From a phage, in the sequence record PZ347661.1: a DNA stretch of 64,000 nucleotides. One strand, written 5' to 3'. Below the pieces are notes generated by a model that was not told where the DNA came from, searched no databases, and saw only the letters and a list, made by a program, of their open reading frames with translations. A program made the position numbers and the translations under genes. This document shows positions 8,089 to 58,954 of the stretch, in pieces; position 1 is the first letter of the stretch; every line of letters starts with the position of its first letter.

Positions 8089-10653
8089 ATGTTAGTTGCA
8101 GATACTAATGAAGTAGCTACCTCAGCGACACTGGGTGGCAAAGAAACAATTGCCTTTGGCATCTCTGATGACCCGGCATTCTTCCATGTATTAAGTACTT
8201 CTCTGTATAACAATCCTACTCTGGCAGTAGTCCGTGAGACTATCTGTAACAGTTGGGATGCTCATATTGAAGCAGGTAAGACTAATACTCCTATTCGTAT
8301 CACCATTGATACAGACAACTTTATTACCTTCCGTGACTACGGTAACGGTATCCCAGATGAACTCATTGGTTCCATTTATGGTGTCTATGGTGCATCTACT
8401 AAGAAAGCCAACAGTAGTGTTACTGGTGGCTTTGGTCTGGGATGTAAATCCCCATTCGCTTATACGGATAGCTTCCAGGTTACTTCATGGAACCAGGGAA
8501 AGATGTCGGTATACAACGTAGCTAAGGCTGCGATTGAGAATGATGGTAAGCCAGGTATTGTTCCTATTGTTACTGGTATTCCTACTGAGGAATCTGGTCT
8601 GGAAGTTAAATTCCAGTTAGGCAAACATGATTTAAATACCTTTATTCATTACATCAAATCAATCGTGTTTAACGGTGAGATTAAAGCTGAGCTAAGTACC
8701 ACTAAACTCGTTAAAACAGAAGAGGGCATTAGTATTCAGCAAGGTGACTACACTCTACTGAATACATTGGGTATGTCATTTGAACCCGGTTCGTATGATA
8801 TGTCTGATAGCTGGTATCAGGGTTATATGGGTAACAGTAACATTTTCGTTCGTTACGGCAACGTAATGTACCCAATTGTATCCAGTCCTGCTAGTGAAGA
8901 AGCTGTAGGTCTTATTCTCAACTTTATGAATATCATTGGTGCTTCTAATTTAGTAGTTCAAGCTGCACCAGATACTCTGGCTATTGCTCCTAGTCGAGAA
9001 ACTCTGTCTAACCAGAAGTTAACCGACGATGGTATTACTACTCTATGTGTAGATTTAGTAGACCGTATGGAGAAAGAGATTAAGGCTAAAATTCCTGAAG
9101 CTATTAAGCAGGTTGAAGAATTCGCCTCTAAATCCTCTACTCGCTTTTGGGAATATCCTTCTTTCCTGTCTGCTGTTACAAACCCAATTGTTCAACGTTA
9201 TATGTCTTCTAGTTTGTGGGCTAAGCAACGTAAGCATCACATCAAGCACTGGCGTAACCTATCCAATAAAGCATTACTAGCTCGTCCTGAATATGCAGGT
9301 CTTAAGAAGCTGTATGGTAAAGCTATACGTGCTCTTAAGCATACGCGTACAGACAGCACCTATTTATTCCAGGATTTAGTATACCGTCACCTACACTTAC
9401 CCCAACTTGCTGCTCTAAAGGCTACTGGTATTAAGTGGTCTGGTTACATAGTGAACCAGGGTAGCTGTGTTGACTTAGTAAAAGGTAAGCTTACTGATTA
9501 CTTTAAGATGACTCATCTTAGTCATTTAGGTATCGGCATATTCACTACCAAGAACGTTGTAGTTACCCGACGTTTATCTGATTGTGCAGACTCTTTCTCA
9601 TACTTCCCTGAGTACAACCGAGGTGACTTGGAGCGTACAGCTTTTGTTCATGTCGTTGGTCCTAAGAAGGGTGCAGCAGAGGAAGCTGTAGCTAAGTTTA
9701 CTGTTATGGGTTATCGGGTAATTGACCTTACTCAATATAATGAGTGGGACAAACCAACTAACTTCCGTAGAGAACAAGCTAAGATGGCTGCTGAAAAACG
9801 GGCTAAGACAATAGCTGCCAATAAAACCAAAGCAGGAGGTAAAACCAATGCTCTGATTTCATTGAATGCAGTTCTTGATACTACCCGGGTACGGAATAAA
9901 AATGGTGATTGGGAACCCAAGCCCTATATCCAGAAGGAATTTGCTGACCCAAGTCGCCATGAGAAGTACGGTTTCGTTGAAGTGGAGCAACCTAAGTACT
10001 ACGTACTAGCCAATCAGGTTGGTTCAGGTAGCCCAGTAACAGCCAGTATTGGAACCATGTGGAAATGGTATGAGTTGTCCGATGAGATGAAAGCAGAGAC
10101 TGTTGTCTGCCGTAATCAAATCGAAGCTAACAAGGCCAAGCGACGTGGTGCTATCCACATTGATGATGTTCGCTTTATGGAACTGATGCCCGTAATTACT
10201 AGTAAAGGCTTCAAGAAGTATGTTACTGAACATCGCATCGGTATTCTGGAATACGTAGGACTGGATGACAGGGAATACTGGGAAATTCTAGACATACTGG
10301 GTCTAACCTTCAAACCATTACAGAATCTGATTTTTAAACCAGAGTATGAGTGGGCATATGACTTTCTACGGAATCGACCACATGACAACAAAGAAAAACT
10401 TGTTGAAATGGGTTGTATTAAGTCAGTGAGTGACTTAGAACCATATACAAAACTGGTTAATCCCCGTAATCATAAGTACTTTAAAATACTTAATGATTAC
10501 AAAGAATTATTCAGTTATAGCTGGGCTAAAAATGACATCCTACAGACGCTGGACTTAGGTAGTTTGGTCAAACACCTTAAGAAGAATCCAGAGGATATTC
10601 CTGGGTTTAAGTCCCTCTACCGTAATCGTCTAAATAAACTGAAAGGTAACTAA
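8089..10653 (+). CDS. rIIA: rIIA-like protein (GHKL-type ATPase N-domain)
   Basis: N-terminal Bergerat-fold motifs ETICNSWDA, RDYGNGIP and GGFGLGCKSPF; 854 aa; followed by rIIB-sized partner. Confidence 0.6.
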   Translation: MLVADTNEVATSATLGGKETIAFGISDDPAFFHVLSTSLYNNPTLAVVRETICNSWDAHIEAGKTNTPIRITIDTDNFITFRDYGNGIPDELIGSIYGVYGASTKKANSSVTGGFGLGCKSPFAYTDSFQVTSWNQGKMSVYNVAKAAIENDGKPGIVPIVTGIPTEESGLEVKFQLGKHDLNTFIHYIKSIVFNGEIKAELSTTKLVKTEEGISIQQGDYTLLNTLGMSFEPGSYDMSDSWYQGYMGNSNIFVRYGNVMYPIVSSPASEEAVGLILNFMNIIGASNLVVQAAPDTLAIAPSRETLSNQKLTDDGITTLCVDLVDRMEKEIKAKIPEAIKQVEEFASKSSTRFWEYPSFLSAVTNPIVQRYMSSSLWAKQRKHHIKHWRNLSNKALLARPEYAGLKKLYGKAIRALKHTRTDSTYLFQDLVYRHLHLPQLAALKATGIKWSGYIVNQGSCVDLVKGKLTDYFKMTHLSHLGIGIFTTKNVVVTRRLSDCADSFSYFPEYNRGDLERTAFVHVVGPKKGAAEEAVAKFTVMGYRVIDLTQYNEWDKPTNFRREQAKMAAEKRAKTIAANKTKAGGKTNALISLNAVLDTTRVRNKNGDWEPKPYIQKEFADPSRHEKYGFVEVEQPKYYVLANQVGSGSPVTASIGTMWKWYELSDEMKAETVVCRNQIEANKAKRRGAIHIDDVRFMELMPVITSKGFKKYVTEHRIGILEYVGLDDREYWEILDILGLTFKPLQNLIFKPEYEWAYDFLRNRPHDNKEKLVEMGCIKSVSDLEPYTKLVNPRNHKYFKILNDYKELFSYSWAKNDILQTLDLGSLVKHLKKNPEDIPGFKSLYRNRLNKLKGN

Positions 10654-10657
10654 TCTG

Positions 10658-12694
10658 ATGAAAATCGAACTGATTTCTATCATCGCACTGGCAGTTGACA
10701 GTCGTAACCTTACACTGTGGAAGCCCGATGGCTCCACGCTTATATATCCTCAGAGCGATCCACGGGTTGCTCGTATTGTATCTGAAGCACAAACCAAAGG
10801 TCTGGGAACTACCAAAGACCAAATAGAAGTGAATATTGCACCAGAAGTAAACCTGCGTACTGAATATCTGGAAGCAGAGAAGAACACTAATGGATTCGTC
10901 CGTTTCTTCAAGGTAGCTAAAGCTAAACTTATGGAGTTCTTTCAGGATGGTACAGGTGTTCCTCCTGCACGTATCGTCTCAGATATTAAGCTGGGTAACC
11001 CTACTAAGACGTTGGTATCTAAAGCCATGGATACCTTCCTGGCTGTACAAGCTAATGAACCAGAAGTAACTGTAACAGATGGTTTCTACGACAGACGAGA
11101 CAACCTGATGTGGGTTACTGGCTGGGATAAGGACCATAACCATCCTGCACTGGTTCGTTTTATCAATGACGTACTGCGTTGTGGTTATGACCATACCAAC
11201 CGTACTCTTGCACAGGAATGGCCTATTGCAATTCGTGCAGTATCCGATGATGAAATGGGTGAGTTTGCTAAACAAGCTCAGCACATCAAAGGAGTACACA
11301 TTGTATTTACCAGTCGTGATGTAACGCCATTTCCTTACGTAGAAGTAGTTAAAACTACGAACCAGGATAAGCTGGCTGCCGCTTCTGAGAAGCTGGCTGC
11401 ATTGGGGGCTATTAGTACTGATGATGCTAACTTCCACACTGATGTGAAGGAAGATGAAGTGGTTGTTGCTGTTACCAACAATGGGGTTATCCCTGGAGTT
11501 GAGAACCTGCATCGTCACTTGCGTCAATCTGCTCAGCTGAAAGACTACAAGGGCTTTACTAAGTTCCTTGAGCGTCTGGCTCCGGTTATTAAAGACCGTC
11601 TGCACTCAGTAGAAGACCTGATGAAGTTCATGGAGACTGCTGAACTGCCTATTGCCGATGATGGTTCAATCCTGTTCCTCAAACGCCTTAAGTCTAGTGG
11701 TATAGAAAACGGTAAACGTGTATTCGTTGACTGTCACTCAGGTAACATTCGTCAATGGGTAGGCTGTAAAGTGCAGGTACGTGAAGACCTGGTAGACCCT
11801 GACCGTCGTCAGGATTGTTCTAACGGTCTGCACGTAGCATCCATGAGCTATCTACGTGGCTTCGGTGGTAACGTAACTATCCTTGGTAAAGTAGCACCGG
11901 AAGATGTATTTGCTGTTCCTGAGTACAGCACTAATAAGATGCGTGTATCTGCATATCATATTATTGCTGAGCTACCCGAAGAGGAACGTAATAACGTTAA
12001 CAACGGTATCTATCTTTCTAAAACTGAAGTAGGTAAAAAGCTACTTAATGATGCCATCGTTGGGAACCATAGTTCACCTACCACACTTATTATGGTTGGT
12101 GGTCATTATGGTACTAACCTCAAATACACCAATCTATCTTCTGGTTCCGTAGAACAATTCCGTACAGTTGCTAGTAAAGAAGCACTGAATATGGAAGAGT
12201 CACTGAATGAAGCTGTAGCTGCTGAACCAGTGAAAGCTACTGACCTTAAACCTATTAGTAAGAAGGCTCCTACTGTGAAAGAACAAATCCAGGAACTGGT
12301 TAAAGAGTTCCTTAATGCAACAACCCCTGAAGATAAGTTAGCTGCTGCTGACCTTCTGGTAGAACTGCGTGGTAAAGCTCGTAAGCCCTGGGGTGCATTC
12401 GACGTAGGTAGTGATGTAGTAGACGCTATTGCTACTATCCGTAGTACTCGCATTCCTGCACCAAAAGCTAAACCGGTGAAGGTAAGCAAACCTATTAAAA
12501 CTGCCCCTAAACCAATTAATGGAACACACGCTGATAATCTGCGTAGCATCCTGAACGATACGACGTACTCCGACTATCAGAAAGGCCATGCTCTGCAAGA
12601 CTATAAGCGTCATGCTAAGAAGTCATTCACTGCAATGGGTTTGACTGAAGAAGAAGCTAAATTAGCTACCAAACTGGTCAAAGCTGTTAAGTAA
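10658..12694 (+). CDS. rIIB: rIIB-like protein (putative)
   Basis: 678-aa ORF immediately downstream of the rIIA-like gene; assignment by synteny only. Confidence 0.45.
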   Translation: MKIELISIIALAVDSRNLTLWKPDGSTLIYPQSDPRVARIVSEAQTKGLGTTKDQIEVNIAPEVNLRTEYLEAEKNTNGFVRFFKVAKAKLMEFFQDGTGVPPARIVSDIKLGNPTKTLVSKAMDTFLAVQANEPEVTVTDGFYDRRDNLMWVTGWDKDHNHPALVRFINDVLRCGYDHTNRTLAQEWPIAIRAVSDDEMGEFAKQAQHIKGVHIVFTSRDVTPFPYVEVVKTTNQDKLAAASEKLAALGAISTDDANFHTDVKEDEVVVAVTNNGVIPGVENLHRHLRQSAQLKDYKGFTKFLERLAPVIKDRLHSVEDLMKFMETAELPIADDGSILFLKRLKSSGIENGKRVFVDCHSGNIRQWVGCKVQVREDLVDPDRRQDCSNGLHVASMSYLRGFGGNVTILGKVAPEDVFAVPEYSTNKMRVSAYHIIAELPEEERNNVNNGIYLSKTEVGKKLLNDAIVGNHSSPTTLIMVGGHYGTNLKYTNLSSGSVEQFRTVASKEALNMEESLNEAVAAEPVKATDLKPISKKAPTVKEQIQELVKEFLNATTPEDKLAAADLLVELRGKARKPWGAFDVGSDVVDAIATIRSTRIPAPKAKPVKVSKPIKTAPKPINGTHADNLRSILNDTTYSDYQKGHALQDYKRHAKKSFTAMGLTEEEAKLATKLVKAVK

Positions 12695-45607: not shown

Positions 45608-46246
45608 TTAATCGTTAAGGCTACCAGCAGCAATCTGTGCTTGAGCCAGTTGAGCTAATTCAGCTTCAGTCAACGGAGGCAGTACTTCAATGGAGAACTC
45701 ACGTGCTTCTGTTGCACGGATGTCCGGTAAGCCATTCTTACCTTTACGAGTAGTAATGTTAATGAACTTACGTTCTTTAAGAAACTCGTAGATACAGTAC
45801 GGAATATGATAACCATTGTCGGTCACTTCACCGAATGGAACAAACTTACGTACAGTACCCATATATTCGTTAGCTACGGTGATAATCTCACCTGGCAGGT
45901 CTTTCTTCTTCGGATCAAGGTTCTGGATACGTACACGAATCAGTCGAGTCTGTTCTGCACGAATCTTCTGACCCAGGGTCATCTTCTTAACACCAGATTC
46001 TTGGTTAGCACCCAGTGGGTTAACAGCAGCTTCTACTACTGGTTCATCTTTTACTTGTGCAGCTTCAATCTTCTCGCGAAGCTTCTCAACGGAAATGTTG
46101 TTAGAGAACTTGATATTCATCAACGTTGCACGTTGCTTAAGAACTTCAAGTTCGCTAGGCATTGCAATATCGTTAACGGTATCTTCGTTGCCCTGTACGT
46201 TCACTTCTACGTCAGTGGTCGGTTTATCGTTAATGCTCATGTTCAT
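45608..46246 (-). CDS. hypothetical structural-module protein
   Basis: 212-aa ORF downstream of the capsid gene. Confidence 0.4.
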   Translation of the reverse strand: MNMSINDKPTTDVEVNVQGNEDTVNDIAMPSELEVLKQRATLMNIKFSNNISVEKLREKIEAAQVKDEPVVEAAVNPLGANQESGVKKMTLGQKIRAEQTRLIRVRIQNLDPKKKDLPGEIITVANEYMGTVRKFVPFGEVTDNGYHIPYCIYEFLKERKFINITTRKGKNGLPDIRATEAREFSIEVLPPLTEAELAQLAQAQIAAGSLND

Positions 46247-46276
46247 ATTTCCTGTGGTTCATTTAGTTTTATTAAG

Positions 46277-46296
46277 AGGGGGACTTATGTCCCCCT
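46277..46296 (-). terminator. stem-loop downstream of capsid gene (attenuator candidate)
   Basis: AGGGGGAC-ttat-GTCCCCCT GC-rich hairpin in the 67-nt gap after the major capsid gene. Confidence 0.4.
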
Positions 46297-46313
46297 TGTT
46301 TTATTTCGGACTA

Positions 46314-47516
46314 TTACAGAGGAGCAACAGTCTTAATCAGAGCCAGACGTTCTGGGCGTTTAACCAGGATACCATAGTACCACTTGATAGAACTGAAGCC
46401 AGTTTCACCATACGGGTCATTACGGTCAGCAGTTTCTTTACCAGGCATCTTAGTCATGATGGTGAACTTAACAGACTTACCATCAGTCTGGAAGCCAATG
46501 GTAGAGAAGGAGTCATCACCAACTACCAGCATTGGGAATACGTCGTAGTGCTCCTGACCAGATACCATAGAAGTACGGTAACCCGGGTTAGTAGTAACCT
46601 GAGCACCAGCACCTGCCCAATGCAGCATCTCAGGAACCTGAATGATACGGAACTTATCAATACAACCGATTTCACCATTCATCAGAGTACCAGCATCAGC
46701 ATAGTGCTGAACTTCGATGAATGCTTTATTACCGAACAGGTCTTTCATCGCTTTCAGTTCTGGAACCAGTTCAGAACCAACGTACATTACACGAGTACCA
46801 CCAAGTACTTTGGTATCTGTCAGTTTAGAACCAGTGATGATAGTAGTCTGGGTCGGAGTACGGTTCTCAGTAAGAATCTGGTCAAGACGCATCAGGTTCT
46901 TATAAGAAACTACAGACGGGGTAGCACCTTCACCTGTGATGGTAGCATCAGAGACAGCAGCACCTGCATACAGTACAGTACCAGCAGCAGCCAGCAGGTC
47001 TTTCTGGAGAACAGCTTCAGTCAACTGCACAGCACCGTTCATCAGTTCACGAGACAGGTGTTCTTTCAGTTGGTCATCAGAATCAAAGTCCAGAGACTCT
47101 TGGGTAAATTCATAGAAGAAACCGAACTTATGAATAGAGCCTTCACGAGCAATACGAGTAAAGCCTACACGGTTAACACGACCACCGTTCTCTGACAGCA
47201 GAGGCAGTTTAGAAGTGATGTTACCTACGTCTTTGGAAGAACCGTACAGGTTACCATTAACGATGGTAGCACCATTAGCATCAATACCCTGGTCGTTAAT
47301 GTTCTTATCGTCGAGCAGAGGAACGTACTCATACACCTTAACAGTCTTACCGTAGTTCTTCGGCATGTTAACGGTGTTAGCCAGAGGCATAAAATACTGG
47401 TCTTTACGGGACTGAATAATAGCCTTCTTCAGCCAGTAATAGGTATTCATCTGGTCGGAACCAGCACCATCAATGCTAGATTTCTGACCGTCAATTGGAG
47501 CGTTATAGTTTAACAT
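46314..47516 (-). CDS. major capsid protein
   Basis: 400 aa, matching N4 gp56 in size and position relative to portal and scaffold-like genes. Confidence 0.65.
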
Positions 47517-49130: not shown

Positions 49131-51401
49131 TTATAAGTTCATACCAAGAGCCGATGCTGGGTCTTGGCTAGGGTCATAAAACTGGGAACTAAGTGAATAA
49201 GTCGGATCTTGCTGTGCAGCTAAGTCACGTTCCTGTAAAGAGTTCCCGTTAGTCAAAGCGTTATATCCGACAGCAGCAGATATGTTGGGGGTAGTTTCAC
49301 CTTCTTTAGTAGGTGTTGTCAACGCCTTAGTTATTTGAAGGTTCTGGTTTCCTTGAGATTGTGCTTTTTGTTTTTCCATATCACGGGCATGTTTAGTACC
49401 AGATTCTTGTTCCAGATAATCCAGGTCTTTAAGGTCACCGCTAGAAATAGCTTCTTTAGCCTTAGCATTATTGAGTGCAATCTTACTTTTCAACTCCTCA
49501 TTCTCAAGCTGTGCTTTCTGAATTGCTAATTGCTTAAGCTGTTCTTCCATAGGGTCTGGTTGTGGTTTCCAGGTACGTAACTCATGTGCAAGGTCTGGCA
49601 TACGTTTAAGTTCTGCAATCTTAGCTACAAGAGATAACGTAATAGTCTGGTCAACTGTATTACCTAATGTTTGAACCATGAAGCTCAAATCCTGGGACTT
49701 CTGGTTATCAATTTCAGCAGTATTAATATCAACCTCAATGTCGAAGTTACCTTTAAGGTCTTCACGGTTAATTTCTACATACTGCTCATTAGTAATACGT
49801 ACCACTTCCTTTTCAGATAAGAACACAGCATTCATTGCACAAATCTTAGTACCAATGTCTGCCATACCCTTAGCTAATCGACGAAGGATTGCCATCTCAC
49901 GTTTGGATGCTGCATCGAGTGCACCACGAATACCAGCAGCTACATCCCCATAAGCTGCACCAGTTACACCACCAGAAAATGCTTTAACACCAGTTAGTGC
50001 TTCTGCTTCCTGGTTCTGCATCTGAGTCATTACTATTGCCGACTGAGGTAATTCCGGGAACTTATGTTCCATAATGGCCTGACTAGGATTACCCTGCATT
50101 GGGTTATATTCATAGTCTTGCCCATCATCATATCGACGACGGTTAAGGGTATCTAACATCCCCTTGGGATATCCACGCTGCCCATTTGCACTTCGGCCTA
50201 ACAGGTCAATCATCCCACGCATAGTTGCACCAAGAATTGCTTGGTTATCCCCTAACAGTTCAGCATCAGCCTCACCATAGAGTTCACGTTTACGTGGCAT
50301 ATAAGGAACAACTACCAAAGGTAGCTTACCATCCGGGAATGGGTTCTTTTCCATACGGATAAGAGTAGAACCAATCCAGGTAGCAACAATTGGTTCCAGT
50401 GAACCATCGTCGTTAATGTCGTAGAATCCCCAGTATTCATAGGCAATGACTTTCTTACGAAGTGCATCCTTAAACTGGAAATCGCCAGGGGTTTTACTTT
50501 CATGGTCTGGGTCAGTCATAGGACTGGAACTTTCCCAGTCAATCTTATCCAGATTGTGGTAACGGTCCTTGTTCTTCATAAGGTCTGCTTTGCAAGTCTC
50601 AAATGAGATAACTGCATACAGAGCCTTATCCAAATCACCATTACAGCTTGGGTCAATAACTACGTTATTGGGGTTAAGCATTTCAACAGTAGGCCTGTTA
50701 ACCAGTGCCTTCTCTACCTCTACCTCAGTAACACCAGTCTGGATTGCATAGGTAGCTTCCCCAGTTTCATTGAAGTAGTTAACAGCTTCCTTAATATCTT
50801 CTGGCATTGTTTCGTCATATTCACGAGGATTTTCTGCCTGAAGCTGCAAAGCCTGCTGAAGAATATCTGCTTGCTCTTGGTTCTCAATTGGATACAACTG
50901 GAAGACTGGTGTTTCTGTTTTAATCTTAACAGTCTTACGTTCCCAACCAATACGAGCAATACCAGTACCGTCATCTACGACACTGTGTACGTAATCATCT
51001 ACCAGTTTTACTTTATTAAGCTGGGTACGGAATTGGTAGTTAAGAACTAATTCATTCTGACGTGCAGCTAACTCATCTTCAAAAGTAACAGGGGTTACTT
51101 TAAAGAGTTTGTTAGACGAGAGGAATGGTTCTGACAATGGTGCATAACGCCACTCTGCCTGACGGCGAACCAGTCTAGGTTGGACTTGTGATCGTCCCTT
51201 AACCTTTGGGGGTTTAGCCTTACCCTTAACTTCCATTAAGTCATTCCACTCACGAATCTGAGCCATGATTGCATCGTGAGCAGGCTTAGCTGATTCCAAA
51301 TCACCCTTGAGTAATTGGATACTTGGTTCCTTCTTCCAGTCCGTTAACTTCTCTGATTGAGTCGGGTCTGGTAAAGGCTTAAAAGTGTCTTGGTGTTCCA
51401 T
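49131..51401 (-). CDS. portal protein
   Basis: 756 aa, size and position match N4 gp59-like portal. Confidence 0.65.
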
Positions 51402-51403
51402 AG

Positions 51404-51910
51404 TTATTCCTGTTCAAAAAGTTTACGGTCAGCCTGAATCTGTTTACCCAACTCAATTAGTTGGCTGTCACGGAGTCTAACAGTTGCCCTGAGTTCTTCA
51501 ACCAAACGTCTGCCTTCTTCAAGACTGTTGTCGAGTCTGGCTGCATGGCTTGCAAGACTTCTGCACTCAAAGGTTCCGGCTTCGGCTTTACGTTTATATA
51601 CCGATGCTCGTCTTTCAGACTGTTGCATCCGGCTGTCGTAATCACTGCTAACGCGAGCAAGCTCGCTTGCGTAATTACTCTCAGCCGTCTGCAACCGGGA
51701 AGTGAGTAACCCGACTTCATAACTATGGTTTCTTTGGAGAGCATTGTATTTGTCCTGTAATTTTTGTGTTGCCTTTTGATCTTCAATCTTTTGGTCATCC
51801 CACTTCTTTTGAACAGTAGACTGTCCATTGGAATTACCCCAAAAGTAAATGGTGGCCCCTAGGACCACCACCAGAAGATAAGGCCAACCTTTAGAGATTA
51901 GCATCTTCAT
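51404..51910 (-). CDS. i-spanin (Rz-like)
   Basis: N-terminal TM helix [16 protein letters not shown] then long coiled-coil periplasmic domain; downstream of endolysin; contains embedded +1-frame lipoprotein ORF. Confidence 0.5.
51457..51720 (-). CDS. o-spanin (Rz1-like lipoprotein) embedded in i-spanin gene
   Basis: Signal peptide with lipobox-like ...[12 protein letters not shown], short Pro-rich mature region; wholly inside the Rz-like ORF in another frame. Confidence 0.45.
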   Translation of the reverse strand: MKSGYSLPGCRRLRVITQASLLALAVITTAGCNSLKDEHRYINVKPKPEPLSAEVLQAMQPDSTTVLKKADVWLKNSGQLLDSVTAN

Positions 51911-52526
51911 TACATGCCTCCAGTGGCACATTGCCTATTCGGTTAGCTACCCAACCATACGTAAAGTCTGGCATGTTTAATGAGGTGTAGTGGTTCAGTT
52001 GTTTGGCATCAAGTAACTTAATCATTACCTGACATGCTGCAACTTTGCCTCGTTTTTTCTGCAATGCTTTATATGCATTAACAGTACTTGTACCGACTTT
52101 ACCATCAACCTGTATTTTAGGGTAGTCTTTGCCATTGCGAGACATTTCATTAAGAGATAACTGCAACCATTTAGCAGGACGAGTTACACCAGTGTTAACA
52201 CCAGCATCTACCAGCTTGTGTGTTACAGCAGGAGATATATCAGCGAAGGCTACGAAGTTAGGCTTAAGTACGTAGTCATCAATGTATATCTCAGCAGCCA
52301 TCTCTTTAGATAAACCTTTCATAGAACCATCCCAACCATACTCAGTAGCCAGAACTTCTTTATGAGATTTAGCTACAGATTGGGTAATACCATAATTAGT
52401 TTCCCCACCTGGGTCACGAGGATTGTTTACATATCCCCCTTCCATATAGAACACTGCCCCCAGGATAGCAGCGACAACTCCTCCCACTGCACCACCTTTC
52501 GCAGCAAGTTTCTGTTTAGCTTTCAT
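51891..52526 (-). CDS. GH108-family N-acetylmuramidase endolysin with N-terminal SAR-like segment
   Basis: EGGYVNNPRDPGGETNYGIT motif of the GH108 family; Gly/Ala-rich N-terminal hydrophobic stretch GGAVGGVVAAILGAVFYM. Confidence 0.75.
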   Translation of the reverse strand: MKAKQKLAAKGGAVGGVVAAILGAVFYMEGGYVNNPRDPGGETNYGITQSVAKSHKEVLATEYGWDGSMKGLSKEMAAEIYIDDYVLKPNFVAFADISPAVTHKLVDAGVNTGVTRPAKWLQLSLNEMSRNGKDYPKIQVDGKVGTSTVNAYKALQKKRGKVAACQVMIKLLDAKQLNHYTSLNMPDFTYGWVANRIGNVPLEACNEDANL

Positions 52527-52776
52527 GTGAATCTTCCTTTGGTCGGAATCGTATTAATCTGCCTACGATGTTTAAGGCAAACAGTGCAATTGCAATATTG
52601 GAACCATGGGGAATATCTTCCAGGATGTGACGAGGTAATCCTGTCAGCATTGGTTGAATGATATCTATGGCAGAAAACATAATTAACCCAAAAGTACTAA
52701 TCTGAATGGATGCCCACTTCCAGCATCTTTTCCAATTAGGTACTAACTCAATCTTTCTTCTTAACCTGCGAACCAT
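52516..52776 (-). CDS. holin-like two-TM membrane protein
   Basis: Two hydrophobic helices (ISTFGLIMFSAIDII, IAIALFALNIVGRLI), immediately upstream of endolysin. Confidence 0.45.
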   Translation of the reverse strand: MVRRLRRKIELVPNWKRCWKWASIQISTFGLIMFSAIDIIQPMLTGLPRHILEDIPHGSNIAIALFALNIVGRLIRFRPKEDSHES

Positions 52777-53090
52777 GCGAATATCTCCCGTCTTGCAGCA
52801 GCCAATACACCAATGATTGCACCTGCCCCAGCCCACACCCACTTACCAAAAATCCCAGCACCAACAACTTTATGTTTAATGGTAATGAACTCTTCAATAG
52901 TAGGTTCATTCTTAGCTAAACTATCCTCCACGTTTTTCAGTCTATTACCTATGTCATTGATTGAATCCCGTAGCTCCACCAGAGTTTCCTCCAGTTTCTC
53001 ACGATCCTGTCTTTCTCTTGTCTGGTTCTCAAACAGAGTCTTCAATCGTTCCTCCAGCCTGACTAGGAGTAGTTCACCCGATTCATTCAT
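52761..53090 (-). CDS. membrane-anchored coiled-coil protein (holin/antiholin candidate)
   Basis: Charged helical N-terminus, C-terminal TM VVGAGIFGKWVWAGAGAIIGVLAAA; first gene of the lysis cluster. Confidence 0.4.
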   Translation of the reverse strand: MNESGELLLVRLEERLKTLFENQTRERQDREKLEETLVELRDSINDIGNRLKNVEDSLAKNEPTIEEFITIKHKVVGAGIFGKWVWAGAGAIIGVLAAARREIFAWFAG

Positions 53091-53324
53091 AATATTACCG
53101 TAGTTGTGTAGTTAGAATCCCCAATAGGGTCATATCATAAGATGACTCATAGATAATACTTAGTATGATGAGGTACATCCAGACATAGTGTCTGGTATCA
53201 ACACATGGTAGATAGCGTTCAGTTGGGTATGTTTAATATCTCAAGGCAAGTAATTACCTTAACAGCAGTATCAGTTAGGGTAATGCAAACAGTGAACTCT
53301 ATATAAAAAGTATCATTAGTAGGT

Positions 53325-53354
53325 AAAACTAACCCCGCCGAAGCGGGGTTTTTG
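53325..53354. terminator. rho-independent terminator
   Basis: AACCCCGC-cgaa-GCGGGGTT with T-runs on both sides; directly after the 699-aa tailspike gene. Confidence 0.65.
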
Positions 53355-55454
53355 TTATGGCATTCTTATGATTCCAGTTATGTTATTAGGGGTTGCTGGC
53401 AAGGCTGTACCGCTGAATGTCAACTTCAAGAGTCCACCATTATTTGACGGTGTTATAGTTAAATTAGGTGCCGTCCCGTCTAAGTAAACAGCATCGTTAT
53501 ATACGCGACCCCGCACCCGAATACCTTCAACCGTCAAGTTGATTAGAACAATCATATGCGGTCTAAAAGTAATGGCGGTATAGATAGCCCGGGTCGCAAC
53601 ACCCTCATTAATCTGAGAGCAGAACGGTATAGTTGTGGAAGCATCACCTTGGTCACCACTAAACGGCAAATCTACTTTACCGCCGGTGAAGTTCTGACGT
53701 GCAATGAAATTACCAGACCCATCAAGCGCCACAGCAGGAAATACTATTTTCTCGAAACCAGAGAATGTCCACCCAGACGGAACCCCCGGCAGAGTGTTAA
53801 CCGATACCGCAGCAGGAGGAATGTTGACCGTTAAGCCATTCAGGTTTCCAGCATCAGTATTGAATTTGGTGGTGCAGTTCAGGAAGTACGTATTCTCACC
53901 GAATACACCAGAGCTTAACTGGTTGCCGTAGAAACAAGTATTTACGTTGTTAAAGAATCCACCAATTTTAACGGCTCTATGCGCTTGCGCCGCACCCATG
54001 TCAATGGCTACATCGGTGATATCTTCGTAGTAACCGTAAATTTCCAACGGCATTACTTCCCCGGTGAATACTAGCCCTTTATCACAGCTTTCAGCGTTCA
54101 CGAATTCAAGGCGCTGCCCGTTTATAGCGCCGTCAAAACGATACGCAAGTTTGCGCTGTGTAACGTTAATGTTATGGATGTTCTGCGAGTTGATATAGGT
54201 ATCAAACAAGAACGCCGGTTGTGTATGCGTTTTTGGTGCCGTCAGGTTTCGGGAAGTCATAGTATGGAACGCACCATACCAGCTTGACTTAGCAATTAGG
54301 TTTTGAGCACAATCCACGAACGTAATAGAGTGTAATTCGCTTGCCTCTGCAAAGTTCCGTACGCTAAAACCAATCCCTGCATTTCTTACGATGAAATTTC
54401 TAATCTTGGTTCCAGTTACGCGATAAGTATTATCTGCGAGGGCCACATTGCTCTCTAACACCCCTGTTGATGGGTTAAACCCACCAGTAACAAACATAGT
54501 ATTTGTACCATTTCCGACTAGTTCAGCGCCGTTCAGGTCGATGTCTACCATGGCAGGAATGATGATGGGGGAGCTGCCGATTACGTTAAATCGACCACCC
54601 CTTGATGATACTTTGCGGATGCCTTGTTTCATAGCATCAGCGTAGACATCGCCACTTATTCCATTACCAGCAGCTTTAACTGCATCAGCAATAGCTTGTG
54701 TATTATCCGTTGCCGTTGTATATGCGCCAAAATCCTCTATATACAGGATACTGCATTCTCGAATCCAACGACCAGGACCGGATATGGCGGTTGGTTTGAT
54801 GACCACACCATTGTCATCATCCCTGGTATTCGCTGAATCCCATACAAAAATACCACCACCGCCGGATACGCCAGTGCGGTAAGCTTTAACCTGAATTCGC
54901 TGATTAGAAACACTACCGGTAACTCCGCGAAGCGCAACAATCGAATCTACGGCACCTACTAACTTAAGACCATCCTGCGCGGATAAATCAGTTCGTAATG
55001 TTGGGTCAGTCTGCGGCTTCCAGTCAGCGTTACCAACTGGGTTAGTTCCTGAGGGAATAGTTACAGGTAAAGAACCTAAGTAGGTGTAACCCATGCCATT
55101 GTGAAATAATAATTCATTTCTGGTATTTACAACTAAACCAGTAACAAACGAGTCGGACAGGCTTACGAATTCTCTACGTGTAGCAGCCAGTTCACCTAAA
55201 TCAATAGTACCAGCTGAATGAACCAGGACTGCTTGCTCACTGAGACTTACAGCAGTGGTTCCTACTGGGAGTACGGGTAATGAGTAAGCACGTTGAGTAG
55301 TCTTATCATAAATAACTTTGTAACCACCTAAGTCTACACCTACAGAAAAGTAGACTACTTCATTCTGCTTAACACCAAACTTACGGGCAATGGCCTGCTT
55401 ATTGGTAAGAATACCAGTAGAACCTCTACCACCTTGTGAGAACATCTCGTTCAT
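53355..55454 (-). CDS. tailspike / tail fiber with beta-helix (pectate-lyase-like) domain
   Basis: 699 aa; IEDFGAYTTATDNTQAIADAV resembles the N-terminal cap motif of right-handed beta-helix depolymerases. Confidence 0.55.
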   Translation of the reverse strand: MNEMFSQGGRGSTGILTNKQAIARKFGVKQNEVVYFSVGVDLGGYKVIYDKTTQRAYSLPVLPVGTTAVSLSEQAVLVHSAGTIDLGELAATRREFVSLSDSFVTGLVVNTRNELLFHNGMGYTYLGSLPVTIPSGTNPVGNADWKPQTDPTLRTDLSAQDGLKLVGAVDSIVALRGVTGSVSNQRIQVKAYRTGVSGGGGIFVWDSANTRDDDNGVVIKPTAISGPGRWIRECSILYIEDFGAYTTATDNTQAIADAVKAAGNGISGDVYADAMKQGIRKVSSRGGRFNVIGSSPIIIPAMVDIDLNGAELVGNGTNTMFVTGGFNPSTGVLESNVALADNTYRVTGTKIRNFIVRNAGIGFSVRNFAEASELHSITFVDCAQNLIAKSSWYGAFHTMTSRNLTAPKTHTQPAFLFDTYINSQNIHNINVTQRKLAYRFDGAINGQRLEFVNAESCDKGLVFTGEVMPLEIYGYYEDITDVAIDMGAAQAHRAVKIGGFFNNVNTCFYGNQLSSGVFGENTYFLNCTTKFNTDAGNLNGLTVNIPPAAVSVNTLPGVPSGWTFSGFEKIVFPAVALDGSGNFIARQNFTGGKVDLPFSGDQGDASTTIPFCSQINEGVATRAIYTAITFRPHMIVLINLTVEGIRVRGRVYNDAVYLDGTAPNLTITPSNNGGLLKLTFSGTALPATPNNITGIIRMP

Positions 55455-55476
55455 AAGTACCTCTTTGTTTTTCTGG

Positions 55477-55500
55477 AAAACCCCTCCGAAGAGGGGATAT
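55477..55500 (-). terminator. stem-loop terminator between tailspike genes
   Basis: CCCCTC-cgaa-GAGGGG with U-run on the - strand. Confidence 0.5.
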
Positions 55501-55511
55501 GTTAATTATTA

Positions 55512-58253
55512 CTACATACGCTGAATACGCCATCTACGCGTAGTGCTGGATATACCAGATTCTACATATACACCAGTGAGGGTATATAGGGTATTACCTA
55601 ATCGTGTAGCATCAGCAACTGCATGAGAGATGGTATATGCAACACTATCAGTAGCAGCATCATACCCATTGACTGTAACTGTAAATGCAGGAGTTGCCAG
55701 TAAAGTTGCACCACTACTAGCTTCGCCAATGACTTTAGTTACTAGTACGCCAGTACCCGCTGTACTAGCCTCTGGTAGCGTAATACCTATTAAATATTGT
55801 TCATTACCTTGTATATAGTTTTCAGATACTGCTTTCGTTAAAGCATTAATCTGTAGGTGCATCATACGGGGGTTGCCACTACCTGCCGGGATATAAACCT
55901 TAAATACAGCAACAGGAGAAGTAGATGCATGGTTCTTAAAGTTTACCATTGCGGGGATAATAGAGTTCCAATCCCTAACATCCATTGGGCGTGCTTCTAC
56001 ATACATAGATGCTGTGTGCATTGCACTCCCATCGTAATCCCCAGTTCTTCCATAATCTGGTGCATCCGAGAATGTACCTAAGTATCTGTATTTAGATAAG
56101 ACTATCTTAGTGCCATTACCTTGTAGTGAAACGTTGGGTGAGTTAGACCATCCGCCATTAATATAAATAGTAATATTCTTACCTAGTGAGCTGACTGTGT
56201 TTCCTAAACGGAACATGCAATCGTTACAGGTTATTACCTGGTTTACAGTCTGCCCTTCTACCAAATATGGATAAGACGAGGATTCTACATCCCCCTCGAT
56301 ATAGCAAGAATTGAGGGTAAACGTGTTTACCGATGCCATAGTAGCAAAATAAATACGAGACTGTCCTTTGGTTTCAAAAGAACACTCGTTCCACGTTAAC
56401 ACCTGAGTTGGGCAGTGCACTGATACCGCATGGGTCTGTTGCTCTGCCATCCATATATTTGAGAAGTTAACGTTGTTAACTTCCTCTGTTGGTTGATTGT
56501 AGCCAATTCGGATATGTGATCCTGTTAGCACCACAGATGAACTACTACGACGGAAACGGATATTTTGGTACACGGAATACCAACATTTATCAATATCAAT
56601 GCCGTAGTGGAAGTCTTCAAGTATTGCGTCTACAACCCCACCATTATCCGTGTTATACGTACTAGAAATGCCCCTAAGGTTGGCATTACTCGCATTCCCT
56701 TTTAAGCGTAGTGTTTCTAGACGTGCTCCAAATCCTACCAGGGTTACTAAATATCCTGAATTGGTATTATTCGAGGCGTCGATTATTGTGAATAAATCTT
56801 CCCCGCAAATAGTGGTCCCACTCGGCAGAGTGATACCCGCCCCATTGTAGATATATGTACCATGCGGTAAGTACAGTCTACGGAAGTTAGTGACTAAACT
56901 GGTTCCTGTTAATGCTGCACACGCGGCGTCGATGGCATTGGTGTCATCTGTTACACCGTCCCCTTTTGCACCCCAATCCTTAACACTTATATAATCTGCG
57001 TTGAAATCATGTTGTGTACGCATTACAGCAGTAATGTGATTAACCTTGGTGCCAATATGCCCACTACCACTTTCACTTCCTAATCGGTTTTCTAAGTCAG
57101 AAACCTGGGCACTGGGAACGGGAACCAATGCTACGGTAATATTGCCTGGATTATAAGTTAGCTGCCCATTGTTTACAGAGTCGATGTAAACGTTGGTTGG
57201 TAACGTAGGTAACCCATATGCCTTCTGTTCACTAACAGAATAAATAATCTTCTTACCATTAAGTACTTGGGAATTATCCGTACTAAGGATTACCTCAGAA
57301 TCTTTTACATTAGCAGCACGGGCAACTTCCTGAAGAGTATGGTCTGATGTTTCCAGTACCTGTGTCTCTCCGCCAATCTGAACAATCAGACGATCATTAG
57401 TTGCCAGTGGCTCAGTAAGAAGGATACGCTGGTTATCTGGGTCAGCAGTATATGACTCAGTAGTTAGTCCTTTATACAAACGAAGACCATTCTTATACAC
57501 AGCAGGAACAGACTGGAAGGTATAAGGAATAGCAATAACCTGCTCACCACCCACAGCAGCACCATTGTTGTATAACCAGTTAATCTGAACCCAGTCATTA
57601 ACGTTAGGGTTGTCTGGTACAGCAGGAACACCAGTCAGCAAGAATACAACTTCATCACCTTCTTCCAGAGGCTGAGCCAGAGTCACGGACAGATTCTCTA
57701 CGTTAAACTCAAAGCCACGACCTACATACTGCATGTCACCATTAATAATGATAAATGGTACACCTACTGTACCATCCGGTACGTTGATTGTGGTTTCCCC
57801 ACCAGTAGCAGAACCATTGCTATATACCCAAGGAATGTATGCACCCTCACCAGAGGAAGTACCACCTCCATTGGAACCGGTAGTAGCAACAGTAATCCAC
57901 GAACCAGTTGATTCTGGGTCATCTGGGATAATACCGGTACGATCACCTTCTACGTATAAGTAGTCAGTTACCTGACGGTCACCTGCACGGGAGAAGCCAT
58001 AAATACGTGCATACTTAGCTTTGGTTGTTAGAGCCTTAAGTTCTGCCTCAGACTGTACGCCAAGTACCATCCCATACTGATTCAAGAAGTCATAAATCAG
58101 TTTAAGGTTACCCAGGTTGCAGTACACAGTACGAACCACGTGGTAAGCATTACCAAGTAGTGCATCTACCATTGGGTCATTGGAACTGTTCTGGCAGTAA
58201 GGATTAGTCCAATCCTGATTTGCATCAAAGGGGGTATGTGCGTTCATCGCCAT
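55512..58253 (-). CDS. tailspike with pectate-lyase-superfamily beta-helix domain
   Basis: 913 aa; SVKDWGAKGDGVTDDTNAIDAACAAL is the classic beta-helix tailspike/depolymerase motif. Confidence 0.65.
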   Translation of the reverse strand: MAMNAHTPFDANQDWTNPYCQNSSNDPMVDALLGNAYHVVRTVYCNLGNLKLIYDFLNQYGMVLGVQSEAELKALTTKAKYARIYGFSRAGDRQVTDYLYVEGDRTGIIPDDPESTGSWITVATTGSNGGGTSSGEGAYIPWVYSNGSATGGETTINVPDGTVGVPFIIINGDMQYVGRGFEFNVENLSVTLAQPLEEGDEVVFLLTGVPAVPDNPNVNDWVQINWLYNNGAAVGGEQVIAIPYTFQSVPAVYKNGLRLYKGLTTESYTADPDNQRILLTEPLATNDRLIVQIGGETQVLETSDHTLQEVARAANVKDSEVILSTDNSQVLNGKKIIYSVSEQKAYGLPTLPTNVYIDSVNNGQLTYNPGNITVALVPVPSAQVSDLENRLGSESGSGHIGTKVNHITAVMRTQHDFNADYISVKDWGAKGDGVTDDTNAIDAACAALTGTSLVTNFRRLYLPHGTYIYNGAGITLPSGTTICGEDLFTIIDASNNTNSGYLVTLVGFGARLETLRLKGNASNANLRGISSTYNTDNGGVVDAILEDFHYGIDIDKCWYSVYQNIRFRRSSSSVVLTGSHIRIGYNQPTEEVNNVNFSNIWMAEQQTHAVSVHCPTQVLTWNECSFETKGQSRIYFATMASVNTFTLNSCYIEGDVESSSYPYLVEGQTVNQVITCNDCMFRLGNTVSSLGKNITIYINGGWSNSPNVSLQGNGTKIVLSKYRYLGTFSDAPDYGRTGDYDGSAMHTASMYVEARPMDVRDWNSIIPAMVNFKNHASTSPVAVFKVYIPAGSGNPRMMHLQINALTKAVSENYIQGNEQYLIGITLPEASTAGTGVLVTKVIGEASSGATLLATPAFTVTVNGYDAATDSVAYTISHAVADATRLGNTLYTLTGVYVESGISSTTRRWRIQRM

Positions 58254-58954
58254 CCTCGTTGTTCAAATTTAGTTTCGGTAATTGAAATACTTCCATTAGC
58301 CAGGTCGTAATCAACAACCTCACCACAGATGCTTTCATACGTTTGCAGATACTCTGCTGCTTTAGCATTAGCTTCAGGAGTATTCAAACCGGTGTGGTAA
58401 CGATAGCCCACCCAGTTATGAAGTGCCGTCATTAGCGTATCAGCTAAATCAACTTCCTGTTCTTCATCACCCGTAAGTACAGGGTGCTTAGCTTGATAAG
58501 TTACGTTAAGTGCCTCGAAGTGTCGAGGTCGCATACACTGAATAGTATCAGGCCGAGGAGTAAAAATTGCATGAGGGTCTGAATCGTCGTTAAGTCTACG
58601 TCGATTCCCTGAGTTATCAAACACATTTAGGATTTTAATAACATCATCCTGGAAAGGCTTCATGAACCCATCCATGATATATGGATATTGAATCTCAAGA
58701 GTAGGCTTAGTAAATCTGGAATAGGCATATTTGGATTGAAGGGGATAATCAGTACGACCTTCCTTCATTTCCACAATACAGCTGTTAGTCCTAAGAGGGA
58801 AACGACTATGTAGTCGTACCAGTCCCTCATTAATAGCAGCTAATATCTCAGGCTTACTCTCTGGTTCAATATCTAATCTGTCATCAGTGATTGCACCAGT
58901 ACCCTTCAGAGTACTTAGTGCCAAGCCACGATATACTTCCGATAATTTCTGCAT
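58244..58954 (-). CDS. virion / tail-associated protein (gp67-like position)
   Basis: 236-aa ORF between terminase and tailspike genes. Confidence 0.4.
   Translation of the reverse strand: MQKLSEVYRGLALSTLKGTGAITDDRLDIEPESKPEILAAINEGLVRLHSRFPLRTNSCIVEMKEGRTDYPLQSKYAYSRFTKPTLEIQYPYIMDGFMKPFQDDVIKILNVFDNSGNRRRLNDDSDPHAIFTPRPDTIQCMRPRHFEALNVTYQAKHPVLTGDEEQEVDLADTLMTALHNWVGYRYHTGLNTPEANAKAAEYLQTYESICGEVVDYDLANGSISITETKFEQRGWR

Follow-up and report, generated by a model that had tools for sequence, protein, structure and literature searches.

A compact N4-type lysis cassette in the Gamaleyavirus sequence record PZ347661.1

Layout and neighborhood of the cassette

The window analyzed is a stretch of 64,000 nucleotides from sequence record PZ347661.1, and the phage is a Gamaleyavirus, an N4-like E. 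coli phage of the Schitoviridae. Inspection of the open reading frames revealed five on the - strand at 51404–53090 (Table 1), exactly where an earlier note on this DNA had placed lysis genes. Overlaps of 16, 11 and 20 nt between the cassette genes bear out the description of the cassette as compact, and its reported position between tailspike and portal genes was confirmed by the matches of the flanking genes to phrog_7992 and SU10_portal.

Table 1. Features of the lysis locus and its borders (positions are those of the window).
Feature	Coordinates	Strand	Identity to N4 protein	Description
Tailspike gene	53355–55454			Flanks the cassette; phrog_7992 match, 5.6e-84
Upstream hairpin	53331..53350	-		Intrinsic-terminator-like, AACCCCGC-TTCG-GCGGGGTT, AGTTTT after; 8 pairs, 6 G-C
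gp63-like protein (likely pinholin)	52761..53090	-	68%	109 aa
gp62-like two-TM protein	52516..52776	-	63%	86 aa; ATG at 52776, GGGAGA ahead
gp61-like putative SAR endolysin	51891..52526	-	70%	211 aa; GH108 and PG_binding_3
Internal RNA hairpin	51837..51872	-		UGGUGGUCC-UAG-GGGCCACCA and U-rich tract UUUACUUUUGG; up to 11 pairs; putative terminator/attenuator
gp60-like i-spanin (Rz type)	51404..51910	-	57%	168 aa; ATG preceded by GGAGG
gp60a-like o-spanin (Rz1 type)	51457..51744 (start 51744 or 51720)	-	60%	Embedded wholly in gp60, different frame
Portal gene	49131–51401			Flanks the cassette; SU10_portal match, 2e-150

PHROGs matches were obtained for the gp60-like protein (phrog_6197, 'Rz-like spanin', 3.9e-77), the endolysin (an endolysin family, 5.9e-42), the gp62-like protein (phrog_1356, 'holin', 7.3e-31) and the gp63-like protein (phrog_5211, 4.5e-50), and the complete five-gene order recurs in 18 independent IMG/VR loci; by these two measures the cassette lies far above chance. 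BLASTP comparison with N4 gp63, gp62, gp61, gp60 and gp60a returned E-values from 2e-34 to 5e-110, the latter for gp61, and the gp63 alignment covered 107 aa with an E-value of 7e-54. The cassette is a five-gene host-lysis module of the standard N4 type, which has been described previously; the observation is real but ordinary and already known. In N4, the gp63-gp62-gp61-gp60/gp60a cassette has been dissected experimentally, and the gp60-63 cluster is enough for rapid lysis (Awuah et al., 2025, preprint, bioRxiv 10.1101/2025.11.12.688109).

Searches against NCBIfam yielded a sub-threshold holin_dep_muram match for the endolysin and no match for the membrane proteins or spanins of the cassette, and no Rfam family reached a meaningful score within 51000–53600. 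A sigma-70 promoter scan upstream of the gp63-like gene gave no candidate on the - strand, a result of little weight given that N4 late promoters are atypical.

Membrane proteins, endolysin and spanins

The N-terminal part of the gp63-like protein is a heptad-repeat helix with LLLIILVL at the a/d positions of residues 31–60, a pattern that 0/1000 shuffles reached, and its one TMD is C-terminal and Gly/Ala-rich (aa ~75–99, encoded at ~52794–52868), in agreement with its earlier description as a coiled-coil single-TM protein. Nucleotides ~52869–52907 encode PTIEEFITIKHKV, the conserved 'Receiver' stretch. The N4 rapid-lysis residues T65 and T71 are retained within PTIEEFITIKHK, and PTIEEFITIKHKVVGAG, which includes both, is the same as in N4. 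The protein is conserved in the related loci L004–L021, and the features found in it, namely homology, a single C-terminal TMD and the Receiver stretch, are those of an N4 gp63-type pinholin. N4 gp63, which is lethal by itself, complements the pinholin of phage 21 but fails to complement the S105 holin of lambda (Awuah et al., 2025). Because of the 68% identity to N4 gp63 and the N4 experiments, we assign the gp63-like protein as the likely pinholin that would time lysis. At the position of the alternative N4 start, gp63 Met17, the window has a TTG after GGAGG and no ATG, so that regulation may differ from that in N4. Several Gamaleyavirus records mis-annotate gp63 as 'tail length tape-measure protein', a label that is obviously mistaken in the case of a membrane protein of 109 aa; elsewhere among such records gp60 is truncated or gp60a omitted.

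The gp62-like protein displays two hydrophobic peaks (aa 22–40 and aa 59–77), begins with MVRRLRRK and matches the Pfam family DUF7940 (PF25612, 1.9e-13; 51.2 bits vs. a cut-off of 27); a score above the cut-off, two TMDs and basic residues at both termini are the features of a DUF7940 two-TM lysis regulator. An alternative GTG start at 52842, which appeared in the mechanical ORF list and would give 108 aa, was rejected: it directly follows a stop codon, a stop codon interrupts the N-terminal extension in loci L012–L014, and the GTG itself is an automatic by-product of conserved Lys-Trp codons in gp63 (aaR-tgg, hence RTG).

Both of the membrane proteins listed in the earlier note are present, and its reading of the cassette was upheld throughout, with one refinement of roles: by N4 homology the likely pinholin is the coiled-coil protein, not the two-TM protein that the note called holin-like. 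The opposite assignment, in which the gp62-like protein is the true holin and the gp63-like protein has an antiholin, regulatory or structural role, draws on the 'holin' label of phrog_1356, on the annotation of gp62 as 'putative holin' in relatives, on the class-II-like topology conferred by two TMDs, and on the late, triggerable lethal activity of N4 gp62, which eventually frees even lambda R. These public labels are, however, bioinformatic. N4 gp62 is not needed for lysis in either plasmid or phage contexts, 0 mutations mapped to gp62 among >60 N4 rapid-lysis isolates, and N4 gp63, a conditionally essential protein, suffices by itself to complement the S21 pinholin. With window proteins 63% (gp62-like) and 68% (gp63-like) identical to those N4 proteins, we consider it improbable that the gp62-like protein is the true holin. 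N4 gp62 was called a 'lysis regulator' and found dispensable, in a preprint in which the assignment is tentative and complementation of the gp62 deletion failed (Awuah et al., 2025). The gp62-like protein is probably accessory and non-essential, with a slow holin-like activity, and the gp63-like protein remains our candidate for the pinholin.

The claim that the third gene encodes a GH108 muramidase was upheld by Pfam matches to GH108 (PF05838, 4.6e-20; 72.4 bits vs. a cut-off of 21.2) and PG_binding_3 (PF09374, 1.6e-7; 31.8 bits vs. a cut-off of 24.6). The protein is arranged in the order SAR segment, EGGY motif (with catalytic Glu29), GH108 and PG_binding_3, and the Pfam score together with EGGY, the conserved catalytic motif of the N4 gp61 muramidase family (PMC13284979), places it among the GH108 N-acetylmuramidases. 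Its N-terminus reads MKAKQKLAAK-GGAVGGVVAAILGAVFY-MEGGY, in which MEGGY corresponds to residues 28–32. The SAR segment at aa 11–28 (GGAVGGVVAAILGAVFYM, encoded at nt ~52443–52496) comprises 18 uncharged residues, is preceded by four Lys and followed immediately by EGGY, and reaches 58% Gly/Ala/Ser/Thr in the best 19-aa window. Examination of the orthologues for absence of this Gly/Ala-rich N-terminus found it in every one (18/18 related loci, down to 50% identity), and comparison with N4 gp61 revealed the same SAR N-terminus, in which the N4 rapid-lysis residue G12 is also retained. A weakly hydrophobic, G/A/S/T-rich TMD that is conserved and has basic residues ahead of it is the sequence signature of a SAR endolysin, and the N-terminus appears to be of the SAR type, as had been suggested. 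N4 gp61 complements both soluble-endolysin and SAR-endolysin defects and works with a pinholin (Awuah et al., 2025).

Were the N-terminus an ordinary cleavable Sec signal peptide, a soluble, active enzyme would be secreted and would be regulated in some other way. Small residues that could fit a -3/-1 rule do occur within the hydrophobic stretch or where it ends, e.g., L-G-A at residues 22–24, yet the Gly/Ala-rich stretch abuts the catalytic EGGY without a polar c-region and is conserved across all orthologues. Furthermore, N4 gp61 behaves as a SAR endolysin, as evidenced by gradual holin-independent lysis and synchronous release by the pinholin, and charge insertions in its segment speed lysis up rather than abolish it. 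Because of this experimental behavior of the N4 orthologue, signal-peptide cleavage is very unlikely, and the gp61-like protein is most likely a SAR endolysin, tethered to the membrane and freed on depolarization.

The gp60-like protein carries an N-terminal TMD (placed at aa 3–25 or, more narrowly, at aa ~9–25) followed by a periplasmic helical domain with a moderate heptad signal (27/1000 shuffles reach it), and its match to DUF2514 is weak. Its start at 51910 is the one conserved among relatives; an upstream ATG at 51931 was rejected, being not conserved and absent in loci L011 and L012, as was a 123-aa form of the embedded ORF, which is not conserved. The out-of-frame lipoprotein ORF reported inside the i-spanin gene was located entirely within it, and the lipobox-like ITTAGC held up under a formal check: ITTAG/C (Cys codon 51625–51627; Cys40, or Cys32 when counted from the proximal Met) matches a PROSITE-PS51257-style rule, with Asn at +2, which would make the product a lipoprotein. 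The predicted mature part is 56 aa, the same length as in N4, and contains no Cys other than that for lipidation. The synonymous-difference fraction in gp60 is 0.113 over the mature o-spanin overlap vs. 0.288, 0.340 and 0.402 elsewhere, a threefold fall. The i-spanin topology, the o-spanin ORF with its lipobox and the selection on both frames are those of an embedded two-component spanin (for the architecture classes, see PMC6139136). That the embedded frame is open by chance, with gp60 disrupting the outer membrane unaided or a different gene doing so, could be argued from the lack of a Pfam, PHROGs or NCBIfam match for this ORF, from Thr at lipobox position -3, where Leu is commoner, and from a proximal Met (MKSG) that is not conserved, but can be dismissed in view of a frame open in 18/18 loci with an invariant Cys, a mature part that retains 61% identity even where gp60 has only 38%, the threefold suppression of synonymous change, a conserved upstream Met, the complementation of lambda Rz/Rz1 by N4 gp60 and gp60a (Awuah et al., 2025), and the annotation of the ORF in G7C and St11Ph5 (gp60.1 in the latter).

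Terminator-like hairpins

The gp63-gp62-gp61 trio is bracketed by two terminator-like hairpins in Gamaleyavirus and N4 alike. The upstream one lies immediately past the tailspike stop codon, ~240 nt upstream of the gp63-like gene, and PhAPEC7 annotates the hairpin upstream of gp63 as 'putative terminator determined with ARNold'. The internal one falls within the TMD codons of the i-spanin, 19 nt past the endolysin stop, and is annotated as a terminator in PhAPEC7 (ARNold-based) and SP5M. Its MFE of -16.8 compares with -8.2+/-2.0 for codon-usage-weighted synonymous recodings (z -4.3). In an alignment of 8 sequences including N4, 97.7% of cells are paired and compensatory double changes occur at 4 of the 11 pairs, a value matched by 0/500 shuffles. 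It therefore combines a G+C-rich stem-loop, a U-tract and structural conservation, the structure of an intrinsic terminator. An artefact of Gly/Ala/Val-rich TMD codons was considered and rejected, since the remaining four TMD-coding regions of the cassette gave z from -0.8 to +0.9 in the comparison with synonymous recodings; the covarying pairs also contradict it.

We tentatively suggest that this downstream hairpin, kept by compensatory substitutions, acts as a partial terminator or attenuator that doses the lysis genes, a role that is possible rather than probable. In that case it could determine how much endolysin is made relative to spanin and how much transcription continues into the portal gene, and termination could depend on ribosome re-initiation at the overlapping gp60 start, giving a translation-coupled dosage of lysis genes. 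Lysis inhibition is a trait of N4, and control by the hairpin might feed into it or into lysis timing. The N4 study would have been blind to such an effect because the cassette was expressed under lambda Q antitermination. A literature search on N4-like late terminators yielded no relevant report for Gamaleyavirus or for E. coli N4, and transcript 3'-end data for their late genes were not found.

Proposed lysis pathway and comparison with known systems

The cassette is very probably orthologous, gene for gene, to that of N4 and would encode a pinholin/SAR-endolysin/two-component-spanin pathway. Gene content, order, overlaps, domains, topology signals, lipobox, dual-coding constraint and N4 orthology were read from the window itself, whereas every functional step is transferred, at 57–70% identity, from the N4 experiments and from established SAR, pinholin and spanin biology. 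The pathway would proceed as follows: (i) the host Sec system would export the GH108 muramidase, and the weakly hydrophobic SAR segment would tether it, inactive, in the inner membrane; (ii) the gp63-like protein would build up in the membrane until, at a programmed time, it forms small lethal holes and the membrane potential collapses, with the gp62-like protein as a probable accessory whose slow holin-like activity modulates timing; (iii) on depolarization the SAR segment would leave the bilayer, allowing the endolysin to refold and degrade the peptidoglycan around the whole cell; and (iv) the i-spanin in the inner membrane and the lipoprotein o-spanin in the outer membrane, pre-joined across the periplasm, would disrupt the outer membrane after the wall has been removed, presumably through the fusion mechanism that has been proposed for lambda Rz/Rz1.

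Beyond correct annotation, the finding carries little weight, the module being a textbook one with an experimentally dissected N4 counterpart. What is gained is that a likely pinholin role is assigned to the 109-aa coiled-coil protein, which relatives label 'hypothetical' or 'tape-measure', and a probable accessory role to the protein labelled 'holin'; that the start sites of gp62, gp60 and gp60a are corrected to positions downstream of the longest-ORF starts; and that the conserved terminator-like hairpins around the holin-endolysin genes offer a testable lead, which could bear on lysis-protein dosing and on the very large bursts of N4-like phages.

In N4 as in the window, the same five genes lie in the same order on the same strand and the portal gene follows immediately; also shared are the SAR N-terminus, EGGY, the Receiver stretch, the 56-aa mature o-spanin, the embedded architecture and an internal hairpin in the same register. 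The two differ in the upstream neighbor (a tailspike of the Gamaleyavirus gp63.1 type in the window, gp64/gp65 in N4), in N4 gp63 Met13 and Met17, both Leu in the window, in the lipobox (TIVG/C in N4, TTAG/C in the window) and in the distance of the upstream hairpin from the gp63 ATG (~20 nt in N4, ~240 nt in the window). For the N4 muramidase, see Stojkovic and Rothman-Denes (2007), as cited in Awuah et al. (2025). Among the Gamaleyavirus relatives, G7C, St11Ph5, Bp4, ECBP1, pSb-1 and PhAPEC7 have 95–97% DNA identity over 51001–53310, and the relatives annotate gp63, a putative holin gp62, an N-acetylmuramidase gp61 and Rz/Rz1 gp60.2/gp60.1. Their cassettes differ by point differences only, whereas the adjacent tailspike genes are unshared, ~35% of 53091–58300 being covered in the best relatives.

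The same logic, in which a small-hole holin depolarizes the membrane and an N-terminally tethered endolysin is freed, is found in phage 21 (S21-68/R21) and in P1 Lyz, although neither the phage 21 pinholin and SAR endolysin nor P1 Lyz has a sequence relationship to the window cassette. Unlike the GH108 endolysin of the window, R21 and Lyz are enzymes of the T4-lysozyme type. Of the two TMDs of S21, one exits the membrane, whereas gp63 combines a cytoplasmic coiled-coil with a single C-terminal TMD. N4 gp63 and gp61 cross-complement S21 and R21 (Awuah et al., 2025). The lambda Rz/Rz1 pair resembles that of the window in having an i-spanin of type II membrane topology whose gene encloses the whole o-spanin gene in a different frame, but the window spanin belongs to a different sequence family (phrog_6197), and the mature o-spanin of the window has no Cys beyond the lipidated one. 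Lastly, the GH108/TtsA-type muramidases of bacterial type 10 secretion (PDB 6v3z and 6v40; 1.4e-27 and 1.4e-20), a family linked to N4 gp61 (PMC13284979), have the same GH108 and PG_binding_3 fold family. The solved relatives 6v3z, 6v40 and 2ikb align from residue ~19–23 of the gp61-like protein onward, leaving most of the SAR segment uncovered, and the role of the solved bacterial GH108 proteins is secretion, not phage lysis.

Layout and relatives of the lysis cassette

The ORF listing and the sequence place five genes on the minus strand from 53090 to 51404, orthologues of the coliphage N4 lysis genes gp63, gp62, gp61, gp60 and gp60a, and this agrees exactly with the coordinates and gene order of the compact lysis cassette described in the earlier note. 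Consecutive genes overlap by 16, 11 and 20 nt, and only 2 nt separate the gp60 stop from the portal ATG. Profile matches to the portal and tailspike genes likewise confirmed that the cassette lies between them.

Features of the cassette and of other regions of the window, with protein identity to N4 where applicable
Feature	Coordinates	Strand	Length	Identity to N4	Remarks
gp63-like	53090..52761	-	109 aa	68%	
gp62-like	52776..52516	-	86 aa	63%	GGGAGA before ATG; longer GTG ORF from 52842
gp61-like	52526..51891	-	211 aa	70%	AGGAAG upstream
gp60-like (i-spanin)	51910..51404	-	168 aa	57%	GGAGG upstream; longer ATG at 51931
gp60a-like (o-spanin)	51744 or 51720..51457	-	95 or 87 aa precursor	60%	out of frame, entirely within gp60
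Portal	49131-51401				Pfam SU10_portal, 2e-150
Tailspike	53355-55454				phrog_7992, 5.6e-84
Tailspike/tail-fibre genes	53355-58253	-	699 aa and 913 aa		
Internal hairpin	51872..51848	-			with U-tract, 51837-51872
Upstream hairpin	53350..53331	both			
rIIA/rIIB-position pair	8089-10653 and 10658-12694	+			
Antisense ORF	46095-47195	+	366 aa		
Late-block ORF	46314-47516	-	400 aa		

An ORF of 3611 aa in the window is typical of the virion RNA polymerase of N4-like phages, and the region 51001-53310 is 95-97% identical at the DNA level to Gamaleyavirus genomes (Schitoviridae, Enquatrovirinae), including PD205, ZQ2, ECBP1, Bp4, St11Ph5 and pSb-1. In those relatives gp63 is labelled hypothetical, gp62 a putative holin, gp61 an N-acetylmuramidase and gp60.2/gp60.1 the Rz/Rz1 spanins; both spanin ORFs are also annotated in the G7C record. 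The N4 identities were obtained by BLASTP with the unannotated embedded ORF of N4 gp60 included. Among 18 IMG/VR loci retrieved with gp61 (50-98% identity), the five genes keep the same order, apart from gp62, for which no match was found in L021, the most divergent of these loci.

Annotation errors propagate among the GenBank relatives (Bp4 KJ135004, ZQ2, PD205, PGN829.1; PhAPEC7, SP5M): the 109-aa gp63 homologue is mislabelled 'tail length tape-measure protein', gp60 is cut short in Bp4, PhAPEC7 and SP5M (about 72-74 aa), and the embedded o-spanin is mostly left unannotated. Elsewhere in the window, a large ORF pair, the first with an HATPase_c_3 domain, occupies the position of the N4 rIIA/rIIB-like genes, and the KP8 paper gives its homologues the name rIIA/rIIB lysis inhibitors. 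In the late-gene block, the 366-aa ORF antisense to a 400-aa ORF is probably a spurious frame.

Endolysin, membrane proteins and spanins

The gp61-like protein exceeded the Pfam cut-offs of both Glyco_hydro_108 and PG_binding_3. It carries MEGGY at residues 28-32, in which EGGY is the catalytic motif conserved across this family of muramidases (PMC13284979). Its N-terminus reads MKAKQKLAAK and then GGAVGGVVAAILGAVFYM, an 18-residue uncharged stretch (58% Gly/Ala/Ser/Thr) that continues directly into the catalytic motif; the solved relatives 6v3z, 6v40 and 2ikb begin to match only at residue 19-23. A Lys-rich and then Gly/Ala-rich N-terminus is kept directly before E-G/Q-G in all 18 IMG/VR loci. 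The earlier proposal of a GH108 muramidase with a signal-anchor-release (SAR) N-terminus is upheld by the Pfam match, the Gly/Ala-rich stretch and its presence in orthologues. N4 gp61 is a SAR endolysin that functions with a pinholin, lyses gradually without any holin, and causes rapid lysis when charges are inserted into its SAR segment (Awuah et al., bioRxiv 10.1101/2025.11.12.688109). The Gly equivalent to N4 gp61 G12 is present in the window. By analogy, the N4 data argue against a cleavable signal peptide on the gp61-like protein.

No Pfam family was found for the gp63-like protein, which has a perfect 3-4 hydrophobic repeat at residues 31-60 (matched by 0 of 1000 shuffles) and a single C-terminal, Gly/Ala-rich TMD. 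The N4 pinholin is gp63, a single-TM, C-terminally anchored protein that is lethal and conditionally essential and that complemented the phage 21 pinholin S21 but not the lambda holin S105; the mutations that give rapid lysis are concentrated in a 'Receiver' stretch adjoining the TMD (bioRxiv 10.1101/2025.11.12.688109). In this stretch, PTIEEFITIKHKVVGAG, the window protein does not differ from N4, and the equivalents of T65 and T71 are both present. The annotated ATG of the gp63-like gene has a weak Shine-Dalgarno. The position of N4 gp63 Met17, a proposed alternative start, is TTG in the window, with GGAGG 5 nt upstream (53043-53057, minus strand, gp63 codons 12-16), and CTG or TTC in other relatives; a dual-start motif is thus not conserved.

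The gp62-like protein belongs to DUF7940 / phrog_1356 and has two hydrophobic segments. Its N4 counterpart is a non-essential 'lysis regulator' whose holin-like activity is late and triggerable (bioRxiv 10.1101/2025.11.12.688109). A longer form (108/109 aa, extension 52777-52842) is doubtful, since the conserved Lys-Trp codons in the overlapping TMD of gp63 automatically give rise to its GTG, since this GTG comes immediately after a stop codon, and since a stop closes the extension in L012-L014.

The gp60-like protein matched phrog_6197 'Rz-like spanin' (3.9e-77) and has an N-terminal TMD. The embedded ORF fits a PROSITE-PS51257-style lipobox rule, with Asn at +2 and a mature part of 56 residues, the length also found in, and reported for, the N4 o-spanin (bioRxiv 10.1101/2025.11.12.688109). 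Its frame is open in 18/18 IMG/VR loci, the Cys does not vary and the mature part is conserved; identity at the most distant locus is 61% for the o-spanin as against only 38% for the overlapping gp60. Among gp60 codon pairs with identical residues, the fraction of synonymous differences was 0.113 over the mature o-spanin overlap versus 0.288, 0.340 and 0.402 elsewhere, which is a dual-coding signature. The lipobox, the open frame and the synonymous drop bear out the out-of-frame lipoprotein ORF that had been noted within the i-spanin gene. The proximal Met (MKSG) is Thr in several relatives; the upstream Met (51744) is conserved, in agreement with the St11Ph5 annotation. The analysis itself shows the gene content, the topology signals, the dual coding and the orthology.

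Terminator-like hairpins

A terminator scan identified a hairpin, UGGUGGUCC-UAG-GGGCCACCA, of up to 11 pairs followed by UUUACUUUUGG, within the i-spanin TMD codons and 19 nt past the endolysin stop. Its stability (-16.8 kcal/mol; z -4.3) was reached by 0 of 300 codon-usage-weighted synonymous recodings, and the corresponding region gave z values of -3.5 in N4, -3.1 in L039 and -4.8 in L046; no significant stability signal was seen in L044, nor in L041 and L047-L049, four distant relatives, mostly GC-rich. When eight distinct Enquatrovirinae sequences were aligned without gaps, 97.7% of the cells were paired, as against 39-63% in slid controls, and compensatory double changes occurred at 4 of the 11 pairs, a covariation reached by 0 of 500 shuffles. 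The remaining segments of the cassette that code for TMDs had no excess structure. Stability in the window and its relatives, covariation and specificity support a selected RNA structure. The hairpin is already in databases, as a 'putative terminator determined with ARNold' (PhAPEC7) and a 'terminator' (SP5M), and looks intergenic there because gp60 is truncated in both records.

A second terminator-like hairpin, G+C-rich and palindromic, directly follows the tailspike gene, and an N4 analogue lies about 20 nt before the gp63 ATG (N4 locus L003, about 3675-3700); in the two lineages, terminator-like hairpins thus lie on either side of the gp63-gp62-gp61 trio. Terminators are not mentioned in the N4 study, in which the cassette was expressed under lambda Q antitermination (bioRxiv 10.1101/2025.11.12.688109). 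The conserved hairpins are putative terminators or attenuators of transcription.

The two tailspike/tail-fibre genes, the 913-aa one with a pectate-lyase-like domain, are only about 35% covered by the nearest Gamaleyavirus genomes, as against 95-97% identity in the adjoining cassette. The contrast suggests that a receptor-binding module was exchanged, with a breakpoint close to the terminator (about 53310-53350).

Comparison with the N4 lysis system

The proposed pathway, in which a pinholin, a SAR endolysin and a two-component spanin would act together, is the best-supported explanation of the cassette, with each functional step drawn by analogy from N4 and established lysis biology. In N4, the gp60-63 cluster is by itself enough for rapid lysis, and gp60/gp60a complemented lambda Rz/Rz1 (Awuah et al., bioRxiv 10.1101/2025.11.12.688109). 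The cassette is real and its earlier interpretation correct; it is also already known, an ordinary example of a system that has been both annotated and characterised by experiment.
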